Shown: positions 2,443-10,081 of the stretch, piece by piece
Layout: every line of letters starts with the position of its first letter
Numbering within the stretch: position 1 is the first letter of the stretch
Source of the DNA: an uncultured Gammaproteobacteria bacterium
GTDB taxonomy: Bacteria > Patescibacteriota > Microgenomatia > UBA1406 > GWC2-37-13
Length of the DNA: 32,000 nucleotides
Direction of reading: 5' to 3'
Assembly (NCBI GenBank): GCA_964632205.1
Contig: CAZWBE010000002.1
Coordinates: forward strand, 1 to 32,000
Made by a program: the position numbers and the translations under genes
The notes under the pieces: model-generated
What the model was told of the DNA's origin: nothing
The model's input: the letters and a program-made list of their open reading frames with translations, nothing else
The model's database searches: none

Positions 2443-2613
2443 ATGTGTTTTATTAGACCTTTAAAAATAAAACAAATTGATGGGAAAAAAATCATTCTTG
2501 AAAATGGGATTGAAGCATATTATCATAAAAAGATAGGTGAGCTTAAAATTGGTGATTCAGTCGTCGTCTACGGAAATTTAGTTCTTAATAAAATTTATGA
2601 GCCAAAAAGATAA
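2443..2613 (+). CDS. hypC: HypC/HupF-family [NiFe]-hydrogenase maturation chaperone, miniature (56 aa)
   Basis: An internal ATG gives the N-terminus MCFIRPLKIKQIDG, which matches the HypC MC(I/L)xxPxxI..IDG signature with the essential Cys2. The distal IGDSVVVYGNLVL resembles the HypC GDwVLVHVGFA strand. The upstream 36 codons of the track ORF (TTG at 2335) are low-complexity. Confidence 0.6.
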   Translation: MCFIRPLKIKQIDGKKIILENGIEAYYHKKIGELKIGDSVVVYGNLVLNKIYEPKR

Positions 2614-3556
2614 AGATAGTTTAAAAAAAGGGGTTTTATTAGCTTTGATAGCCGCTATCATCTCAGGATTTGCTATTTTTTATTCCAAATTTGCCGTGGC
2701 TAAAATTCCTCCTTTAATTTTAACTACCTCAAGAAATATGACAGCGGCAGTCTTATTAATGGTGAGTTATTTTTTATTATTAAGACGAAGACAAGAACTG
2801 AAAAATTTAAAAAAAGAAGATGCGATTAAATTGGTGCTTATTGGCATTATTGGTGGTGCTTTACCTTTTTACCTTTTCTTTAGCGGGTTGCAATTAGTTA
2901 AAGCGCCGATAGCTAATCTTATTCATAAAACGCTTTTTATTTGGGTGACTTTTCTTGCCGTGGTCTTTCTTAAAGAAAAGCTTAATTTAGGCTACATTAT
3001 TGCTTTTATTTTAATTTTTATAGGAAATTTTTATTTTGCCAAAATTCCCACGTCTTTTGGCAAAGGAGAATTGTTGATTTTAATTGCCACTCTTTTTTGG
3101 TCGGTGGAGAATATTTTGGCGAAAAAAGTTTTAAAGAACGTTTCCTCTGAATTAGTCGGTTTGTCGCGGATGGGGATTGGGTCGTTAATTCTAGTAGCGG
3201 CGTTAATCACCACCGGACAATTGGGGAAATTATCTGCGATTAACAGTCAGCAATTAACAGTGATTTTAATTGGGGGGACAATTTTATTTTTTTATGTTTA
3301 TTTTTGGTATAAGGCTTTAAAATACGCACCTGCTAGTTTGGCAACATTAATCTTAACTTTTTCGGTGGTAGTGGGTAATATTTTAACCGGGGCTTTTGCC
3401 GGAGTGAAAATTTTACCAAAAGATCTTTATTCATCATTTTTAATTATAATTGCCACGATTATTCTTTATTTTGTAGCCACACACCAACCCGCCTACGACC
3501 TGCCAGGTCGTAAGCGGAGCCTGGCAACAATCCGAAAGTCAGCTAAAAATGGATAA
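2597..3556 (+). CDS. EamA/DMT-superfamily permease (about 10 TM segments)
   Basis: 319-aa ORF with two repeated 5-TM halves typical of EamA domains. Its start overlaps the hypC-like stop by 17 nt, and its stop overlaps the next start by 8 nt. Confidence 0.75.
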   Translation: MSQKDKDSLKKGVLLALIAAIISGFAIFYSKFAVAKIPPLILTTSRNMTAAVLLMVSYFLLLRRRQELKNLKKEDAIKLVLIGIIGGALPFYLFFSGLQLVKAPIANLIHKTLFIWVTFLAVVFLKEKLNLGYIIAFILIFIGNFYFAKIPTSFGKGELLILIATLFWSVENILAKKVLKNVSSELVGLSRMGIGSLILVAALITTGQLGKLSAINSQQLTVILIGGTILFFYVYFWYKALKYAPASLATLILTFSVVVGNILTGAFAGVKILPKDLYSSFLIIIATIILYFVATHQPAYDLPGRKRSLATIRKSAKNG

Positions 3557-4319
3557 TCAAGGCATACTTCTTTGTGCTAAATACGCCGTTTCTCCCAATT
3601 TTTTTGGTTATTGTGGTCCTGATAAAAATTTAAGTTTAGTTGACCACCTAAAAGAAAGTATTGCCGATGATGAATTGGTGGCGATTCTTTCTGATTTTGA
3701 AACCTTATTTCCCTATCTTCAATTAATTGCTCGCCAAAATAAAATTACCGATCCATTTGATCGGCGGGTAGTAGAAGCTTACTGGCTTGGCAATAATTTC
3801 TTAAAACCGACAACAGCTTTAGAGTATGAGGCGTTTGCAAAAGAAAAATTATTATTGGCAGGTAAGTTATCAAAAGATGATTTTTTAAATCTAAAGTTAA
3901 AAATTAACCGGTTAAAATTTATTCCTCATCATGCTTTTCATGTTTTTAATATCTTCAAAAGAACTGGTCATGACTCAAGTTTCCATACCATCAAAACCAT
4001 GGATGAGTGTCGGATTGGTTGGGGTAAGATAATTAAAATTCAAAAATCGAAAATCAAAAATTACAATGAAAAATTAAAAATTAATTCGGTTATAATTGAA
4101 ACCAAAACTTTAATCATTAAAGACGATCAATTAGCTTTATCTAAATCGTTTAGTAGAGAATTAAAAGTTGATTATAAGGGTAAGATTTTTGTCAATAATT
4201 TAAATATTGGTGATTGGATAAGTTTTCATTGGGGATTTGTTTGTGATAAATTAACCGCCAAACAGGTAGCCAATTTAGAATTTTATACACAAAAAGCAAT
4301 TGATTTTTATAATCTATGA
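3549..4319 (+). CDS. Uncharacterized conserved protein with a HypC-like C-terminal segment (possibly the family catalogued as DUF6390; from memory, unverified)
   Basis: 256-aa ORF. The N-terminal motif AKYAVSPNFFGYCGP and RVVEAYWLGN recall conserved hypothetical proteins seen next to hydrogenase and hyp genes. The C-terminal IGDWISFHWGFVCDKL resembles the HypC GDWVLVHVGFA motif. It is translationally coupled on both sides. Confidence 0.6.
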   Translation: MDNQGILLCAKYAVSPNFFGYCGPDKNLSLVDHLKESIADDELVAILSDFETLFPYLQLIARQNKITDPFDRRVVEAYWLGNNFLKPTTALEYEAFAKEKLLLAGKLSKDDFLNLKLKINRLKFIPHHAFHVFNIFKRTGHDSSFHTIKTMDECRIGWGKIIKIQKSKIKNYNEKLKINSVIIETKTLIIKDDQLALSKSFSRELKVDYKGKIFVNNLNIGDWISFHWGFVCDKLTAKQVANLEFYTQKAIDFYNL

Positions 4320-4648
4320 AAATCTATGTTTTTGGCAATCCGTTAGTTAAAGAAGACTGTCTTCCTTTAGAGTTGAGTAATCAGCTAAAAAATAAATTTA
4401 AAGAAATTGAATTTATTCCGGCTGACCCTAATGAAAATTTTCCTCCCAAAGGAGAGAAAGATTTAGTCATTCTCGATACTGTCAAAGGGATAAAAAAACC
4501 AATGTTATTAGATTTAGATGATTTTGAGAAGAAAAAAAAGACTCCATTATCTCCTCATGATTACGATCTTTTATTTCACCTTCTCCTTTTAAAAAAACTA
4601 AAAAAAATTAACAAAGTGTTGATTATTGGCGTTCCTTTTTGCGAATAA
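4316..4648 (+). CDS. [NiFe]-hydrogenase maturation endopeptidase (HycI/HybD-like), miniature (110 aa)
   Basis: GNPLVKEDCLP matches GNxLxxDDGxG. VILDTV and LSPHDYDL supply the Asp and His of the metal-binding triad. ATGA start/stop overlap with the upstream gene. Confidence 0.65.
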   Translation: MKIYVFGNPLVKEDCLPLELSNQLKNKFKEIEFIPADPNENFPPKGEKDLVILDTVKGIKKPMLLDLDDFEKKKKTPLSPHDYDLLFHLLLLKKLKKINKVLIIGVPFCE

Positions 4649-4663
4649 GATTTTTTTAAAAGA

Positions 4664-5974
4664 TTATAGCCATTTTACCTTTAAAAAATGAGCCGCACAA
4701 CTCATACATGGATCAAAAGCACGAATAAATTTTTCCGCCTCATAAATAATTTTTTCTTTTGAAGCCCCCTCTTGCAGTAAATTTTCAACAATTTGATGAA
4801 TGCCTTTTTCCATAATAATTTGATTTTGTCCCGTTGGGACGACAATTTCTGCTTGTTTAATTAATCCTTCTTTGCTAATTTCTAATTTATGATAAAGAGT
4901 ACCCCTGGGAGCTTCAATAACCCCCACCCCTATTGATTCAATTAGATTAATTTTTAGGAGTTTTTCTTCTTTAATCTCCGAAAGATTGTTGATTAGTGAG
5001 TAAGCCATATCAATGGCGTGGAGAACTTCAATTGCTTGAGCTAAATTATTGTCAAATAAATTAGATGAAGGAAAATGTTCTAAATATTTTTTAACCTCAA
5101 TTTTTGTTTGAGGATGAAGTTTATCTTTGGATAAATTAATTCTTGCCAAGGCGCCAGTCATTAAATAATGATTATCTAATAAAAAACCGCGGGCTTGAGA
5201 ATAGGGGATGATTACACCCTTAAGATGATTACCAAAATCTTTTTCTTCAATAATTTTTCCGTTACTGGTATGGATTTTCCCATCCAAAAAAGAAAAATCA
5301 TCCGAGACTAAACTAGAAAAAATAAAAGGGAATCGGGGAATGAATCGCCAGGAAGAATTAAAAAAAATCTCCATCAGTCTCAATATCTTTGGTCTGATTT
5401 TTTCCATTTCAGGAAGAAGTTTTTTTAATTCTTCAATTTTAGGCAATTTAGAAAAGCCGCCAATCGTTGGGTATGGGGCATGAACTGAGCGACCGCCAAC
5501 AATAATTGATAATTGATTACCAATTTCCTTAACAGCAAAAGCATCTTCCAGTAATTGATGTTCAACGAGAATATTTTCATTAAAATCAAGAATCGACTCT
5601 TTACCAAAATAATCAGGGAGACTAAAGATATAGAGATGAAGAGCATGATCGCGAATGATTAATCCCAGAAAAAGCAGTTTTCGTAAAAGAAGGGTTTGAA
5701 AAGAGGGAGTGATATTTAGAGCTTTTTCTATTGCTTCAATGGCGCATAAAAGATGAGCATTGGAACAAGTACCGCAAATGCGTGATAGAAGTTGGGGCAC
5801 GGCTAAAACGGGTTTTCCCTCAACTGCTTGGGTATAAAATCTTTTCCATTCGGAAATATTAAATCTCAACTCCTCAATTTTTTTATTTCTTACCTTTATT
5901 TCCAATGAAGCCGCCCCCTCAATTTTTGAGATTTCAGATAGGTTGATGTCAAAATCAACATCAGATTGATGCAT
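4664..5974 (-). CDS. [NiFe]-hydrogenase large (catalytic) subunit, group 3-like
   Basis: 436 aa. N-terminal RICGTCSNAH (RxCGxCxxxH) and C-terminal DPCMSCAAH (DPCxxCxxH), followed by a 7-residue tail FLKVKWL that could be the protease-cleaved extension. Confidence 0.9.
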   Translation of the reverse strand: MHQSDVDFDINLSEISKIEGAASLEIKVRNKKIEELRFNISEWKRFYTQAVEGKPVLAVPQLLSRICGTCSNAHLLCAIEAIEKALNITPSFQTLLLRKLLFLGLIIRDHALHLYIFSLPDYFGKESILDFNENILVEHQLLEDAFAVKEIGNQLSIIVGGRSVHAPYPTIGGFSKLPKIEELKKLLPEMEKIRPKILRLMEIFFNSSWRFIPRFPFIFSSLVSDDFSFLDGKIHTSNGKIIEEKDFGNHLKGVIIPYSQARGFLLDNHYLMTGALARINLSKDKLHPQTKIEVKKYLEHFPSSNLFDNNLAQAIEVLHAIDMAYSLINNLSEIKEEKLLKINLIESIGVGVIEAPRGTLYHKLEISKEGLIKQAEIVVPTGQNQIIMEKGIHQIVENLLQEGASKEKIIYEAEKFIRAFDPCMSCAAHFLKVKWL

Positions 5975-6047
5975 AAAAATAAAATTGAAAGTTAAAAATC
6001 TAAAATTAAAAATAACAACTGGAAATTTTAAATTGACAAAAAATAGC

Positions 6048-6518
6048 TTATATAAATAAATACTTATTTAACACCTTTAAAAAAAGTTCCTCATTCATAG
6101 GACAACCTGGGACGATTTCATCAACTTGAACGACATCGGCGATTTTTAAAACTTTTTCTTTATATGTAAATTTCTCCAAAATCGGTTTAATTCTTTCTAG
6201 CTGTTTTTGATTAAAAAAATTTCTTTGATTAGCTGGCGAACCTAGTACGGCACAGGAACCAATTGCCACTAAAATTTTTGCCTGTTGACGAATTTTTTTC
6301 AGTTTTTCTTCTTGGATGTTAGAAGTGATGGCTCCTTCAACAAAGGCGATATCCATCGGTTTAATATTTTCATCTTCTTTTTTAAAAATTCTGGCGTGAA
6401 CAAATTCAATTTTTTTAAACCAAACCTGATAGTTTTTATTTAAAAGCTCGGTGAAAATAATCGTTGAATCTTCACAGCAAGTGAAGCTGAACCAACCGAT
6501 TTTAAGTTTTTGGGACAT
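6048..6518 (-). CDS. [NiFe]-hydrogenase small subunit, proximal-cluster domain only (156 aa)
   Basis: KIGWFSFTCCEDS, DIAFVEGAITS, IGSCAVLGS and VPGCPMN align (from memory) with the N-terminal roughly 150 aa of group 3b delta subunits such as Pyrococcus HydD. The ORF ends right after GCP, so there is no medial- or distal-cluster Cys-rich region. Confidence 0.8.
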   Translation of the reverse strand: MSQKLKIGWFSFTCCEDSTIIFTELLNKNYQVWFKKIEFVHARIFKKEDENIKPMDIAFVEGAITSNIQEEKLKKIRQQAKILVAIGSCAVLGSPANQRNFFNQKQLERIKPILEKFTYKEKVLKIADVVQVDEIVPGCPMNEELFLKVLNKYLFI

Positions 6519-6678: not shown

Positions 6679-7725
6679 ATGACCCTTACAGAAGTTTCAT
6701 ATTATACGCGTAAATTTTTACCATTTGTTTTTTTATTTTTTATTATTTTTCTAATATTTTTCTATGCGATTAAATTATTTTTTATTTATCTTGCCTCTCT
6801 TCAGCCGAAAAAAATCTACACCAATCCAGTTTTTGGCAAGATTAAAAAACCATATTTACCAGAAGCAAGCGGTAGCGCCGGTTTTAATTTTACCTTAGAT
6901 ACAATTGAGGGAAAGCCAATTACTGCTTCGGAATCAGCCAAAGTTTACTTTCTTCCTCCTTCTATTGCCCGTTTTGGTTACCGAGAGAAAATATATCTGA
7001 TGGCAAAGACATTTGGTTTTGATACGATGTTGGTAAAGCATACCTTAATTGGTAAGGAAGCAATTTTTAGTGATGAAAAGCAGAAATTAACAATTGACAT
7101 TACTAATTTTAATTTCCGTTATGATTATTATTTTGAAGAAGAAGTGGATTTGTTTTCTCAACCATTAATTCCTTCAAAAAAAGAGATAGAAAATAAAGCC
7201 ATCGATTTTTTAACAACGGTCGGAAGGTATCCCAATGAATTGGCGAAAGGAAAGATTAATATAAACCTAATGCGATATGACTGGCAAGAAAAAAAAATTA
7301 TTGCCGTTTCTCGATCCAATGAAGCAAACATAGTTGAGGTTAATTTCTATCGCCCAGATATTGAGGGAATAGCGGTTGTTACTCCAGGGTTTCCTTCCAG
7401 TCAGAATTATGTTGTTTTTACTTTTTTTGAAGAAGGGTTTAGAGTTTTGCGAGCTCAGGTGAAGTTTTTTGAAAAATCAGAGGAGCAAGTGGGTGTTTAT
7501 CCATTAAAAACAGGAGAGGTTGTTTGGGAGCAGCTAAAAAAAGGGCAGGGATTAGTAGTGTCAGCTCCATCGGATCAGAAAAATATTGTTATTAAAAATA
7601 TGTTTTTAGCGTATCTTGACCCTGATGTTTATCAAGAGTACCTTCAACCAGTTTATGTCTTTTTAGGAGAGCCAAATTTCATTGCTTATGTTCCGGCGGT
7701 TTCTGATGATTTTCTTACGGATTAA
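6679..7725 (+). CDS. N-terminally membrane-anchored hypothetical protein
   Basis: 348-aa ORF. One strong N-terminal TM segment (FLPFVFLFFIIFLIFFYAIKLFFIYL), then a soluble region with no motif I recognise. Confidence 0.6.
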   Translation: MTLTEVSYYTRKFLPFVFLFFIIFLIFFYAIKLFFIYLASLQPKKIYTNPVFGKIKKPYLPEASGSAGFNFTLDTIEGKPITASESAKVYFLPPSIARFGYREKIYLMAKTFGFDTMLVKHTLIGKEAIFSDEKQKLTIDITNFNFRYDYYFEEEVDLFSQPLIPSKKEIENKAIDFLTTVGRYPNELAKGKININLMRYDWQEKKIIAVSRSNEANIVEVNFYRPDIEGIAVVTPGFPSSQNYVVFTFFEEGFRVLRAQVKFFEKSEEQVGVYPLKTGEVVWEQLKKGQGLVVSAPSDQKNIVIKNMFLAYLDPDVYQEYLQPVYVFLGEPNFIAYVPAVSDDFLTD

Positions 7726-8617
7726 GATAGGCTAAGTTTTCTTCAGCCCAAAAAATAACTTTTTTTGTATCAGTAAAACGATCTTGGCTTTTAAGGATGA
7801 CAATAATGAGTTGATGACCATTTTTTTTATAAAAACTGACTAAATTTTCACCGGCATTTTCCGTATAGCCGGTTTTTACTCCACCAACACCAGGAATTTC
7901 ACCTAAAAGCTTATTCACATTAGATAACCGATGAAAGATTTTAAAATCAATATCAGAGATAGTAATTTCTTTAGTGGCGACGATTTTAGTTAAATACTCG
8001 TTGGAAAGAAGGGTTCGGGAGGCTAAAGCCAAATCAAAAGGAGAGGTTGTTTGTTTGATATCATCATAGCCAGCGGGGTTAACAAAATGGGAATTAATCA
8101 TTTTTAGCTCCTTAGCTTTTTTGTTCATCAGATCAATAAAATTTTGGTAACCAAAATTTTCAGCCAACGCATAAGCAGCATCATTGGCCGAGTGAACTAA
8201 AACTCCATATAATAAATTTTCTACCGTTATTTTTTCTCCTAAAACTAATCCCATTATTTGCCCATCGCTAATCACTTTATTAATGGTAATTATTTGATTT
8301 GGTTGGTAGACATCATAGGCGACTAAAGCGGTAATTATTTTTGTCGTTGAGGCAGGAAAAAATGATTTGCGGGAATGGCGCTCCATTATGGGAGTGAAGG
8401 AAGGATAGTCAACAACATAAACTCCTTGAGCGGAGATTTCCGGATAATAAGGCAATTTTAAATAGGGGACAGGATTTAATTTAATATTTAATTTTTTTTC
8501 TTGTTGGCTAAAAAGATTACGATTGTAAGCGAAAATACGAAAATAATAAGAATTACCGGGGTAGAAGAGAAAAAGAAGGGTATAGAAAACAAATAAAAAG
8601 TGAAATCTTAAAGACAT
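7715..8617 (-). CDS. D-alanyl-D-alanine carboxypeptidase (peptidase S11, PBP5-like)
   Basis: 300 aa. N-terminal signal/anchor, SxxK (ASTTKIITA), SxN (HSANDAA) and KTG (VKTGYT) motifs. Confidence 0.85.
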   Translation of the reverse strand: MSLRFHFLFVFYTLLFLFYPGNSYYFRIFAYNRNLFSQQEKKLNIKLNPVPYLKLPYYPEISAQGVYVVDYPSFTPIMERHSRKSFFPASTTKIITALVAYDVYQPNQIITINKVISDGQIMGLVLGEKITVENLLYGVLVHSANDAAYALAENFGYQNFIDLMNKKAKELKMINSHFVNPAGYDDIKQTTSPFDLALASRTLLSNEYLTKIVATKEITISDIDFKIFHRLSNVNKLLGEIPGVGGVKTGYTENAGENLVSFYKKNGHQLIIVILKSQDRFTDTKKVIFWAEENLAYLNP

Positions 8618-8713
8618 GAGTTTAATTGCTATTATTAATTTATTTCCCTTTAATCGAAAATATATTTAAGCGCAAAAAAAATTAAAAGGTTATTTTACAT
8701 AAAATAAGCTAAG

Positions 8714-10081
8714 TTATTTTAATTTAATACCTAACTCTTTTAACTGTTCTTCTGGTACTTCTGAGGGAGCGTTCATTACTGAGGTTTTTCCTCCTGATGA
8801 GGCAGGAAAGGCAATAATTTCTCTCACTGAGGGTTCATTCAAAATTACCTGAAGTATTCTATCAAGCCCTAAAGCAATTCCACCGTGGGGAGGTACACCA
8901 TAACAAAAAGCCTCTAATAAATGGCCAAATTTCTCTTCAATTTGTTTTTTTGTGTGACCCATAATTTCAAAAATCTTTGTTTGTAAATTAGGATCAGTTA
9001 TTCGAATTGAACCGCCGCCAACTTCAAAACCATTTAAAACTAAGTCATATTGGTCAGCTCTTACTTTTTCATATTCTTTTTTTTCCAATAAAGACAAATC
9101 TTCTTTTTTTGGAGCCGTGAAAGGATGATGGGTGGCATCCCAGCGATTTTCATTTTTTTTCCATTCAAAACAGGGAAAATCAACCACCCAGCAAAAACCA
9201 AGAATATACGGATCTTTCTTTTCTCTAATATCTGGTCGATCAGATTGATATTTTGTCATTGCCTCCTTATAGGTAATTTTTGGGAAAGGAACTCTCAAGA
9301 ATTTTTTTTCGGGAAAGACTTTTTTAATTACCTCTTGTAGTAAATTTTCAATTATTGAGACTATCTCTTCTTGAGTAGTGAATGATTTTTCTACATCCAG
9401 TTGAGTAAATTCACCATAGGCGCGGTCAGCGCGAGGATCCTCGTCACGAAAACAGCGGGCGATTTGGTAATATTTTTCAATTCCCGCCACCATCAAAAGT
9501 TGCTTGTATTGTTGAGGTGATTGGGGTAAGGCGTAAAATTTTCCCGGCTGCAGTCTTGAGGGAACAATGAAATCACGAGCTCCTTCGGGAGTGGCTTTAG
9601 TTAAGATTGGCGTTTCTATCTCAATAAATCCTTCCTTATCCATAAAATTTCTGATTTCTTTAATAAAATGGTGACGCATAATAAGATTTCTTTTCATTCT
9701 CTCTCGTCTTAAATCTAAATAGCGATATTTGAGGCGGACCTCTTCATCAATTTCGTAACCGCTGTTATTAATGGGTAAGGGCAGAGGTTTGGCTTGAGAG
9801 AGAATTTCTAATTCTATTGCCTCAATCTCAATTGTTCCGGTTTTGATTTTGGGATTAATAAGATTTTTAGGTCGCTCTTTCACCACTCCTTTAATCCTAA
9901 CCACATCTTCTGAATTTAATTGCCTAAATGATTTATTACCAACAATTTGAATTACTCCTGTTTTGTCGCGAAGATCAATGAAAACTATTTCCTTATGATC
10001 GCGTTTGCTGTTAATCCAACCGTAGACTTCAACTTCTTTTCCAATTTTGTCAACTGTTTCTTCTATAAATAAGGTTTTCAT
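8714..10081 (-). CDS. aspS: Aspartate--tRNA ligase, bacterial-type catalytic core without the GAD insertion domain
   Basis: 455 aa. N-terminal OB anticodon-binding domain, motif 2 FRDEDPRADRAYGEFTQLDVE, HHPFTAP, and motif 3 GGIALGLDR. Confidence 0.9.
   Translation of the reverse strand: MKTLFIEETVDKIGKEVEVYGWINSKRDHKEIVFIDLRDKTGVIQIVGNKSFRQLNSEDVVRIKGVVKERPKNLINPKIKTGTIEIEAIELEILSQAKPLPLPINNSGYEIDEEVRLKYRYLDLRRERMKRNLIMRHHFIKEIRNFMDKEGFIEIETPILTKATPEGARDFIVPSRLQPGKFYALPQSPQQYKQLLMVAGIEKYYQIARCFRDEDPRADRAYGEFTQLDVEKSFTTQEEIVSIIENLLQEVIKKVFPEKKFLRVPFPKITYKEAMTKYQSDRPDIREKKDPYILGFCWVVDFPCFEWKKNENRWDATHHPFTAPKKEDLSLLEKKEYEKVRADQYDLVLNGFEVGGGSIRITDPNLQTKIFEIMGHTKKQIEEKFGHLLEAFCYGVPPHGGIALGLDRILQVILNEPSVREIIAFPASSGGKTSVMNAPSEVPEEQLKELGIKLK

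Follow-up and report, generated by a model that had tools for sequence, protein, structure and literature searches.

The gene pair hydS-hydL, located in a 32-kb stretch of DNA from an uncultured bacterium (positions 1 to 32,000 of contig CAZWBE010000002.1, assembly GCA_964632205.1; referred to below as the window), can be assigned to hyd2, a type of [NiFe]-hydrogenase from the Candidate Phyla Radiation (CPR) that has been known since 2020. The assignment is based on the diagnostic features of the pair and on the host lineages, Roizmanbacteria among them, that it shares with hyd2. We hold with moderate confidence that the pair encodes a functional cytoplasmic hydrogenase, a soluble core that trades electrons with a separate ferredoxin or flavoprotein. 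An initial annotation, made from the DNA alone, had described a functional-looking large subunit with both Ni-Fe motifs and a short C-terminal tail, next to a small subunit that keeps only its proximal-cluster domain, and this description stands (Table 1). It had also proposed that the architecture might be novel, a proposal to be dropped if the pair fell within a described clade of routinely short, one-cluster small subunits. As hyd2 is such a clade, and as the one-cluster small subunits HoxY and HydS have also been solved, the novelty does not hold.

Distribution and prior description

The window has a GC content of about 31% and a gene content like that of CPR bacteria (Patescibacteria), and its host is a CPR bacterium of the Microgenomates/Roizmanbacteria kind. 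Proteins with 100% identity to the pair are encoded on an NCBI contig of 104,951 bp. A pattern scan that covered a single genome for each GTDB species found relatives of the pair, and at least 308 of these genomes encode one. From these 308 genomes, 80 loci were fetched and their open reading frames (ORFs) were called and clustered; locus counts below refer to these 80 loci unless another number is given. The large subunits of the 80 loci kept are 49-68% identical to hydL. All of their hosts are Patescibacteria lineages, including Roizman-, Gottesman-, Chisholm-, Azam-, Yanofsky-, Giovannoni- and Moranbacteria, WWE3 and various Parcubacteria. A small subunit lies directly upstream of the large subunit in 74 of the 80 loci. 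Many of the third-party annotation (TPA) metagenome-assembled genomes that carry the cassette (L004, L007-L010, L012-L013 and others) are titled 'uncultured Gammaproteobacteria bacterium' or 'uncultured Candidatus Saccharibacteria', titles that look like placeholder or mislabelled taxonomy.

Jaffe et al. (2020, BMC Biol 18:69, PMC7304191) split the group-3b-related hydrogenases of CPR bacteria into hyd1 and hyd2. In their description, hyd2 forms a long branch, its small subunits are consistently truncated (mean 164 aa), a hypC-like family is found nearby and the presence of beta and gamma subunits is inconsistent. Only subsets of the loci have a PF07992 flavoprotein or an iron-sulfur (Fe-S) protein close by, hyd2 copies are most numerous in Roizmanbacteria, and the authors concluded that "its function remains uncertain" (PMC7304191). 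The pair in the window shows the diagnostic features published for hyd2: a CPR host, a 3b-related large subunit, a small subunit truncated to about the published length, a hypC-like neighbour and no proximal beta or gamma subunit. A literature search for the time after 2020 yielded no paper on truncated small subunits of Patescibacteria.

Affinity of the large subunit

The large subunit hydL matches PF00374 (E 5e-29; 101.9 bits against a Pfam cut-off of 25.8). Its nearest matches in the PDB are alpha subunits of the group 3b soluble hydrogenase I (SHI; 5yxy_A and 9nez_D, E ~3e-58), followed by members of group 3c (9e-44), 3d (2.5e-33), 3a (1e-30) and group 1 (~1e-20 or weaker), and no group 4 large subunit is found among the 60 of 66 PDB matches listed. 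The L2 motif ends in His, whereas the group 4/complex-I-like type has Arg at this position. Among NCBIfam models, ShyA/HydA score highest at 226-230 bits and other types reach at most 121 bits, yet the ShyA/HydA scores are far under the equivalog cut-offs of 700 and 880. As group 3b ranks best in both databases while the scores stay this far below the cut-offs, hydL is related to group 3b, as had been suspected initially, but is not a canonical 3b enzyme. In 16 diverse relatives of hydL, the four Ni-Fe cysteines, the PRG arginine and E19 are invariant, and so are F430, L431, V433 and W435 in the C-terminal tail. The best 120 homologues of hydL are about 425-481 aa long and share 60-81% identity with it.

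Truncation of the small subunit

The small subunit hydS matches PF01058 (E 2e-19; 70.2 bits against a Pfam cut-off of 27), has no twin-arginine translocation (Tat) signal and stops 17 residues past the GCP motif. Among solved structures, it aligns to residues 3-151 of the 261-aa Pyrococcus furiosus SHI delta subunit and to nothing beyond them (E 1e-12), which means that the domain carrying the medial and distal clusters is missing. A frameshift as the cause of this truncation was ruled out, as the same short length is found family-wide: the median length of the small subunit is 164 aa (74 loci), and the best 120 of 1769 hydS homologues are 155-194 aa long, with 66-81% identity. Together with the gap of 73 bp between hydS and hydL, these equally short relatives show that the truncation is genuine. 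A group 3b delta subunit is expected to have about 250 aa with proximal, medial and distal clusters, and hydS falls outside this description; its scores against the NCBIfam models HydD/ShyD (48-62 bits) likewise miss the equivalog level, with cut-offs of 460-500.

The AlphaFold2 model of hydS (predicted local distance difference test, pLDDT, 82) has its best Foldseek fold matches in SHI delta, HydS of the HydABCSL enzyme and HoxY. Over its full length, the best structural matches are HoxY (5xf9_C) and HydS (7t2r_E), with template modelling (TM) scores TMq of 0.74-0.76 and TMt of 0.65-0.67. Both are also among the sequence matches of hydS to solved structures.

Ligands of the single cluster

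Only four cysteines are found in hydS, namely C14, C15, C89 and C139. The CxxC motif that provides the first ligands of a canonical proximal cluster is replaced by CCEDS, and the family motif in 73 loci reads GWF[ST]F[ST]-C-[C/S]-E-D-[S/N]. In these 73 loci, C14, E16, C89 and C139 are invariant, D17 is conserved in 72, and the residue at position 15 is Cys in 67 and Ser in six; C15 is replaced by Ser in about 11% of family members. A census of 270 small-subunit-like proteins counted CCEDS 137 times, CSEDS 18 times and CCEDN four times.

In the close relatives P0365 and P0376 the motif is FTGCEGC, and in many full-length 3b-like small subunits it is TCCEGC. These GCEGC and CCEGC relatives fix the register of the alignment: C15 corresponds to the first canonical Cys and S18 to the site of the lost second Cys. 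In this alignment, C14 is an extra Cys that was common in 3b-type proteins beforehand, and the changes specific to hyd2 are G17D, C18S and the fixation of C14. The proximal cluster has thus lost its second canonical Cys ligand, with S18 in its place.

As C14 and D17 are invariant or nearly so and C15 is replaceable, the ligand set that we favour would consist of a C14-x-x-D17 motif, shifted by one residue, together with C89 and C139, i.e., three Cys and one Asp. This favours the C-x-x-D idea of the initial annotation. An Asp ligand has a precedent in the group 3a subunit FrhG, whose proximal cluster is ligated by Asp60 (Mills 2013, PMC3591093). Alternatively, the tandem C14 and C15 could both be ligands, as in cluster N2 of complex I. 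The tandem Cys had initially been likened to NuoB, but it derives from CCEGC, a motif of many full-length 3b-like small subunits. This origin and the PDB and NCBIfam ranks led us to reject a genuine affinity to NuoB or group 4.

Small subunits that are equally short (150-166 aa) are also found in the sister groups P0369-P0377 (for example, L087 7001-8772). Their motifs TCDEGC and GDEGC contain other Asp substitutions, and they share the two-gene layout and the small convergent gene. The locus with GDEGC also holds an EamA gene and a protein with a HypC-domain match. These sister groups reveal that minimal 3b-like hydrogenases extend beyond strict hyd2. As a separate observation, a VKOR and DsbA-like pair lies beyond the cassette in four Gottesmanbacteria-type loci (L032, L052, L067 and L072). 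The loci L052, L067 and L072 carry the CSEDS variant, with three Cys only, and L061 carries CCEDS.

Electron partners in relatives

A Pfam sweep of the ORFs in the 32-kb window found no genes for Fe-S proteins, flavoproteins or cytochromes, consistent with the initial statement that no partner redox gene is nearby. Beta (Fe-S) and gamma (flavin adenine dinucleotide (FAD)/NAD(P)) subunits are absent from the 32 kb as well, no diaphorase genes are adjacent to hydS or hydL, and no recurrent beta/gamma-like cluster is found across the 80 loci. The window belongs to a subclade of about 27 loci with Roizmanbacteria-type synteny, defined by aspartyl-tRNA synthetase, a D-Ala-D-Ala carboxypeptidase gene and a 348-aa protein of unknown function.

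Outside this subclade, genes for soluble redox proteins recur beside the pair. A reductase of about 415 aa with Pyr_redox_2 (E 4.5e-54) and Rubredoxin_C domains is present in 19 of the 80 loci, and its best NCBIfam matches include the ferredoxin:NAD+ reductases HcaD and AndAa. It is encoded on the strand of the small subunit in 17 of these 19 loci, and in 12 it ends -8 to +15 bp from the small-subunit start. A single-cluster ferredoxin of 89-105 aa (Fer4_15, E 8e-10) is found in 11 loci, mostly just upstream of the reductase. Its CxxAxxC...CP pattern is typical of [3Fe-4S] ferredoxins. The resulting operon order in Parcubacteria-type loci is ferredoxin, FAD ferredoxin:NAD(P)+ reductase, small subunit and large subunit. 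Such operons include L045 (ferredoxin at 7822-8091, with the reductase next downstream) and L036 (reductase at 7656-8900), as well as L040, L050, L058, L070, L079 and others. In L055, a separate thioredoxin-reductase-like gene with a CATC motif lies upstream.

Two kinds of fusion link the small subunit to a flavoprotein directly. P0361 (500 aa), found on three contigs, combines a thioredoxin-reductase-like Pyr_redox_2 domain (CVNC motif) with a CCEDS small subunit (L083 8001-9503 and L084 3807-5309). P0367 (702 aa), from a 6.8-kb contig (JGI 3300072015), combines NuoF-like Complex1_51K and NADH_4Fe-4S domains with a TCSEDS small subunit via a long Pro/Thr/Ser-rich linker; the large subunit comes next, and protease-like and DUF6390 genes are convergent with it. 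The contig of L083 is archaeal, of a type like DPANN (Diapherotrites, Parvarchaeota, Aenigmarchaeota, Nanoarchaeota and Nanohaloarchaeota), as seen from its genes for ribosomal proteins S27e and S24e, Spt4 and Rpb7. Its cassette consists of HypC (PF01455 match), a short DUF6390-like gene, EamA (7078-8001, 36% identity), the fusion, a large subunit that is 51% identical to hydL and a protease-like gene. The cassette is thus not confined to CPR bacteria. The P0361 fusion suggests an H2:disulfide oxidoreductase and transfer of the cassette between domains of life.

Three unrelated ferredoxin or flavoprotein modules are therefore tied to one type of small subunit, which points to its cluster as a docking point for interchangeable partners. 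This suggests that the one-cluster small subunit docks interchangeable soluble partners, most of them linked to NAD(P)H.

The convergent accessory operon

The four ORFs that converge on hydL overlap one another (2443-4648) and form one operon. Downstream of the large subunit, convergent genes for the endopeptidase-like protein are present in 70 of the 80 loci, for DUF6390 in 67, for EamA in 49 and for the HypC-like protein (57-64 aa) in at least 25. The ORF call for the HypC-like chaperone begins at a TTG at 2335, but the true start, judging by its orthologues (57-58 aa, starting MC...), is the ATG at 2443. The endopeptidase-like protein matches HycI/TIGR00072 with E 5e-4 to 8e-4, below the curated cut-offs, and has G7, N8, D14, D54 and H81 as invariant residues, a set that resembles the metal triad of HybD-type proteases.

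Several comparisons connect DUF6390 to HypC. Its residues 154-240 align to the HypC-like protein (hhalign E 6.5e-4), a domain that begins at the invariant Cys154, and a 166-aa archaeal DUF6390 homologue matches the HypC-like protein of the window with E 2.7e-6. In the AlphaFold2 model (pLDDT 72), the C-terminal beta domain matches HypC in Foldseek with probability 1.00 and TMt 0.69-0.82, at an E of only ~0.02. In some JGI entries, the family goes by the name 'hydrogenase maturation factor', and nothing on DUF6390 was found in the literature. C9, C22, C154, H127, H128, H131 and H227 are invariant, and C232 is nearly so. DUF6390 is probably a maturation factor. The convergent operon as a whole can be read as a maturation or supply module for HydSL, with nickel or metabolite supply as a possibility for EamA. 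Motif searches of the 80 loci found canonical HypD in L050 and HypE/HypF in L075 only; these two loci speak against a general replacement of the standard Hyp machinery.

A different role for these proteins would be structural. DUF6390, possibly with EamA, could be a redox subunit of a three- to four-component membrane-associated complex in which electrons leave via DUF6390. Its frequent presence and that of EamA with the pair, which extends to the archaeal locus and, for EamA, to the sister-group locus of P0369, would fit such a complex, and the invariant Cys and His residues of DUF6390 could bind a metal or a cluster. However, both genes are on the strand opposite to the pair, where they overlap in a single operon with the maturation genes for the HypC-like and endopeptidase-like proteins, and the C-terminal domain of DUF6390 resembles a cofactor chaperone. 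HMM (hidden Markov model) searches found no recognisable Fe-S or flavin domain in DUF6390, and EamA-family proteins are transporters. We consider a structural role of this kind unlikely.

Table 1. Positions in the window of the hydrogenase pair, its motifs and neighbouring genes.
Feature	Position	Strand	Basis or remark
hydL, [NiFe] large subunit, 436 aa	4664..5974	-	ORF call and motifs
L1 motif RICGTCSNAH in hydL	5753-5782	-	
L2 motif DPCMSCAAH in hydL	4688-4714	-	
C-terminal tail FLKVKWL of hydL, 7 residues, cleavable (predicted)	4667-4687	-	
hydS, small subunit, 156 aa, proximal-cluster (flavodoxin-like) domain only	6048..6518	-	
First ligand motif C14-C15-E16-D17-S18 (CCEDS) of hydS	6465-6479	-	Non-canonical, replaces CxxC
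C89 of hydS	6252-6254	-	Putative remaining ligand
C139 of hydS	6102-6104	-	Putative remaining ligand
HypC-like chaperone, 56 aa, starts MC...	2443..2613	+	PF01455 weak, E 0.033
EamA-family transporter, 319 aa, 10 transmembrane segments	2597..3556	+	PF00892, E 1e-38
DUF6390 protein, 256 aa, helical domain and C-terminal HypC-like OB domain	3549..4319	+	PF19927, E 2e-50
Maturation endopeptidase-like protein, 110 aa, convergent with hydL	4316..4648	+	HycI/TIGR00072 weak
348-aa protein, N-terminal membrane helix	6679-7725	+	No Pfam family

The 348-aa protein on the other side of the pair is syntenic upstream in 19 Roizmanbacteria-type loci, beside the D-Ala-D-Ala carboxypeptidase and aspartyl-tRNA synthetase genes, and is probably unrelated to the hydrogenase. 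In 12-13 loci other than the window (L004 14018-15019 and 11-12 further Roizmanbacteria-type loci), two unknown proteins follow the HypC-like gene: the first has about 176 aa and a CCKE end, the second (about 152 aa) is a membrane protein that carries a CPAC motif near its N-terminus, and neither has a Pfam family. A scan of the window for promoters and terminators performed no better than on shuffled sequence.

Proposed mechanism and its alternatives

In the mechanism that we propose, HydSL would be a soluble catalytic core of a large subunit and a small subunit with one Fe-S cluster, and the convergent operon would help to mature it. Without medial and distal clusters, the single cluster would be near enough to the surface for direct electron exchange, and a separate, loosely bound partner would stand in for the beta/gamma module of classical 3b enzymes. 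In the lineage of the window, this partner would be encoded elsewhere in the genome, and a ferredoxin is its likeliest identity, either alone or together with an FAD ferredoxin:NAD(P)+ reductase. HydSL would vent excess reductant as H2, or run in reverse when H2 is plentiful. A biochemical precedent is the P. furiosus SHI engineered into an alpha-delta form: its activity is high, NADPH is no longer used, and pyruvate:ferredoxin oxidoreductase donates electrons to it directly (Hopkins 2011, PMC3200332).

Several points weigh against this mechanism. The roughly 27 loci of the window subclade never have an adjacent partner gene, and the partner proposed for the window enzyme is an extrapolation from relatives that are more distant. 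The identity of the ligands and the exposure of the cluster are derived from conservation only, and three invariant Cys would fit a [3Fe-4S] cluster too.

The missing partner genes in the window subclade would also fit an exposed cluster that directly reduces a small acceptor such as polysulfide, elemental sulfur or another low-molecular-weight oxidant, with no protein partner. The nearest characterised enzymes are sulfhydrogenases, and CPR 3b-type enzymes have been proposed in the literature to reduce sulfur compounds. However, sulfur reduction by classical 3b enzymes is assigned to the beta and gamma subunits, which are absent here (Jaffe et al., PMC7304191), and protein partners are suggested by the ferredoxin and flavoprotein modules to which the pair is repeatedly linked or fused in relatives. 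Direct reduction of a small acceptor is quite improbable in our view.

Regulatory hydrogenases (group 2b) lack a C-terminal extension and a protease. That the pair is an H2 sensor or a decaying, non-catalytic remnant, as the initial annotation had allowed, is very improbable: the small subunit is shortened and non-canonical, and a histidine kinase (PAS) lies divergently upstream of it in four Gottesmanbacteria-type loci (L052, L061, L067 and L072), but no such signalling partner is found in the other 76 of 80 loci or in the window, the catalytic residues are all invariant, the small subunit is well conserved among its best homologues, and the presence of the pair in at least 308 species genomes, the conserved tail and the dedicated endopeptidase-like gene argue against both.

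Taken further, the soluble-core reading leads to a joint proposal that we regard as tentative and put forward with low confidence. The hyd2 core would be a portable plug-in H2 module, shared by CPR bacteria and DPANN-like archaea, in which ligation has shifted from C15/C18 to C14/D17, flavoproteins vary between lineages and DUF6390 and EamA are obligatory. If this is true, the fusion of the portable module to a thioredoxin-reductase-like domain would be an H2:disulfide (thioredoxin) oxidoreductase, and DUF6390, with its HypC domain, and EamA would be unrecognised obligatory maturation or nickel-supply factors of hyd2.

The pair in the window is itself no new kind of enzyme. The comparative evidence turns "function uncertain" into testable proposals: an electron route via ferredoxin with or without an FAD reductase, ligation by C14 and D17 as opposed to C14 and C15, an accessory role for DUF6390 and EamA, and a thioredoxin-reductase fusion in archaea. 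What is added to the description in PMC7304191 is the analysis of the ligand motif, the operon of DUF6390, EamA and endopeptidase genes, the linkage to ferredoxin and reductase, the flavoprotein fusions and the archaeal contig. Many CPR genomes encode few redox enzymes, hyd2 being one of these, so its partner decides whether H2 is made or consumed and to what this is coupled. For enzyme engineering, too, a naturally minimal [NiFe]-hydrogenase with two subunits is of interest; heterodimers of this kind have until now been artificial constructs.

Comparison with known systems

Both subunits are matched best, in sequence as in fold, by SHI of Pyrococcus furiosus and Thermococcus (group 3b, alpha-beta-gamma-delta; PDB 9nez, 5yxy). 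Its engineered alpha-delta heterodimer (PDB 9e1j; PMC3200332) is active without beta and gamma. hydS differs from SHI delta, which has 261 aa, three clusters and a canonical CxxC, and native SHI is linked to NADPH via its beta and gamma subunits.

In size, hydS is similar to HoxY of the NAD+-reducing group 3d hydrogenase (5xf9_C, a 189-aa chain with 178 residues modelled) and to HydS of HydABCSL, an electron-bifurcating enzyme (7t2r_E, 179 aa). HoxY and HydS carry the proximal cluster only and pass electrons straight to another protein. Their enzymes form stable complexes with a NuoF/NuoE/NuoG-like diaphorase encoded in the operon, whereas none is adjacent to hydS, though its relative P0367 is a NuoF-like fusion. 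By E-value, hydL is also farther from group 3d (2.5e-33) than from group 3b (3e-58).

FrhG shares with hydS the loss of the second CxxC Cys and the availability of a carboxylate as fourth ligand (PMC3591093). In FrhG, this Asp occupies the canonical Cys site, equivalent to S18, whereas in hydS it lies one residue earlier, at D17, and is preceded by the extra invariant C14. FrhG keeps its medial and distal clusters, unlike hydS.

NuoB/Nqo6 shares with hydS its fold (Foldseek E ~1e-5), a length of about 155 aa, a single cluster and consecutive Cys in the first motif, but is far more distant from it (NCBIfam E ~1e-4). Unlike in NuoB, the second tandem Cys of hydS is dispensable, and hydL has a full Ni-Fe site. 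In contrast to group 4 enzymes and complex I, the window encodes no membrane subunits, the EamA transporter excepted.

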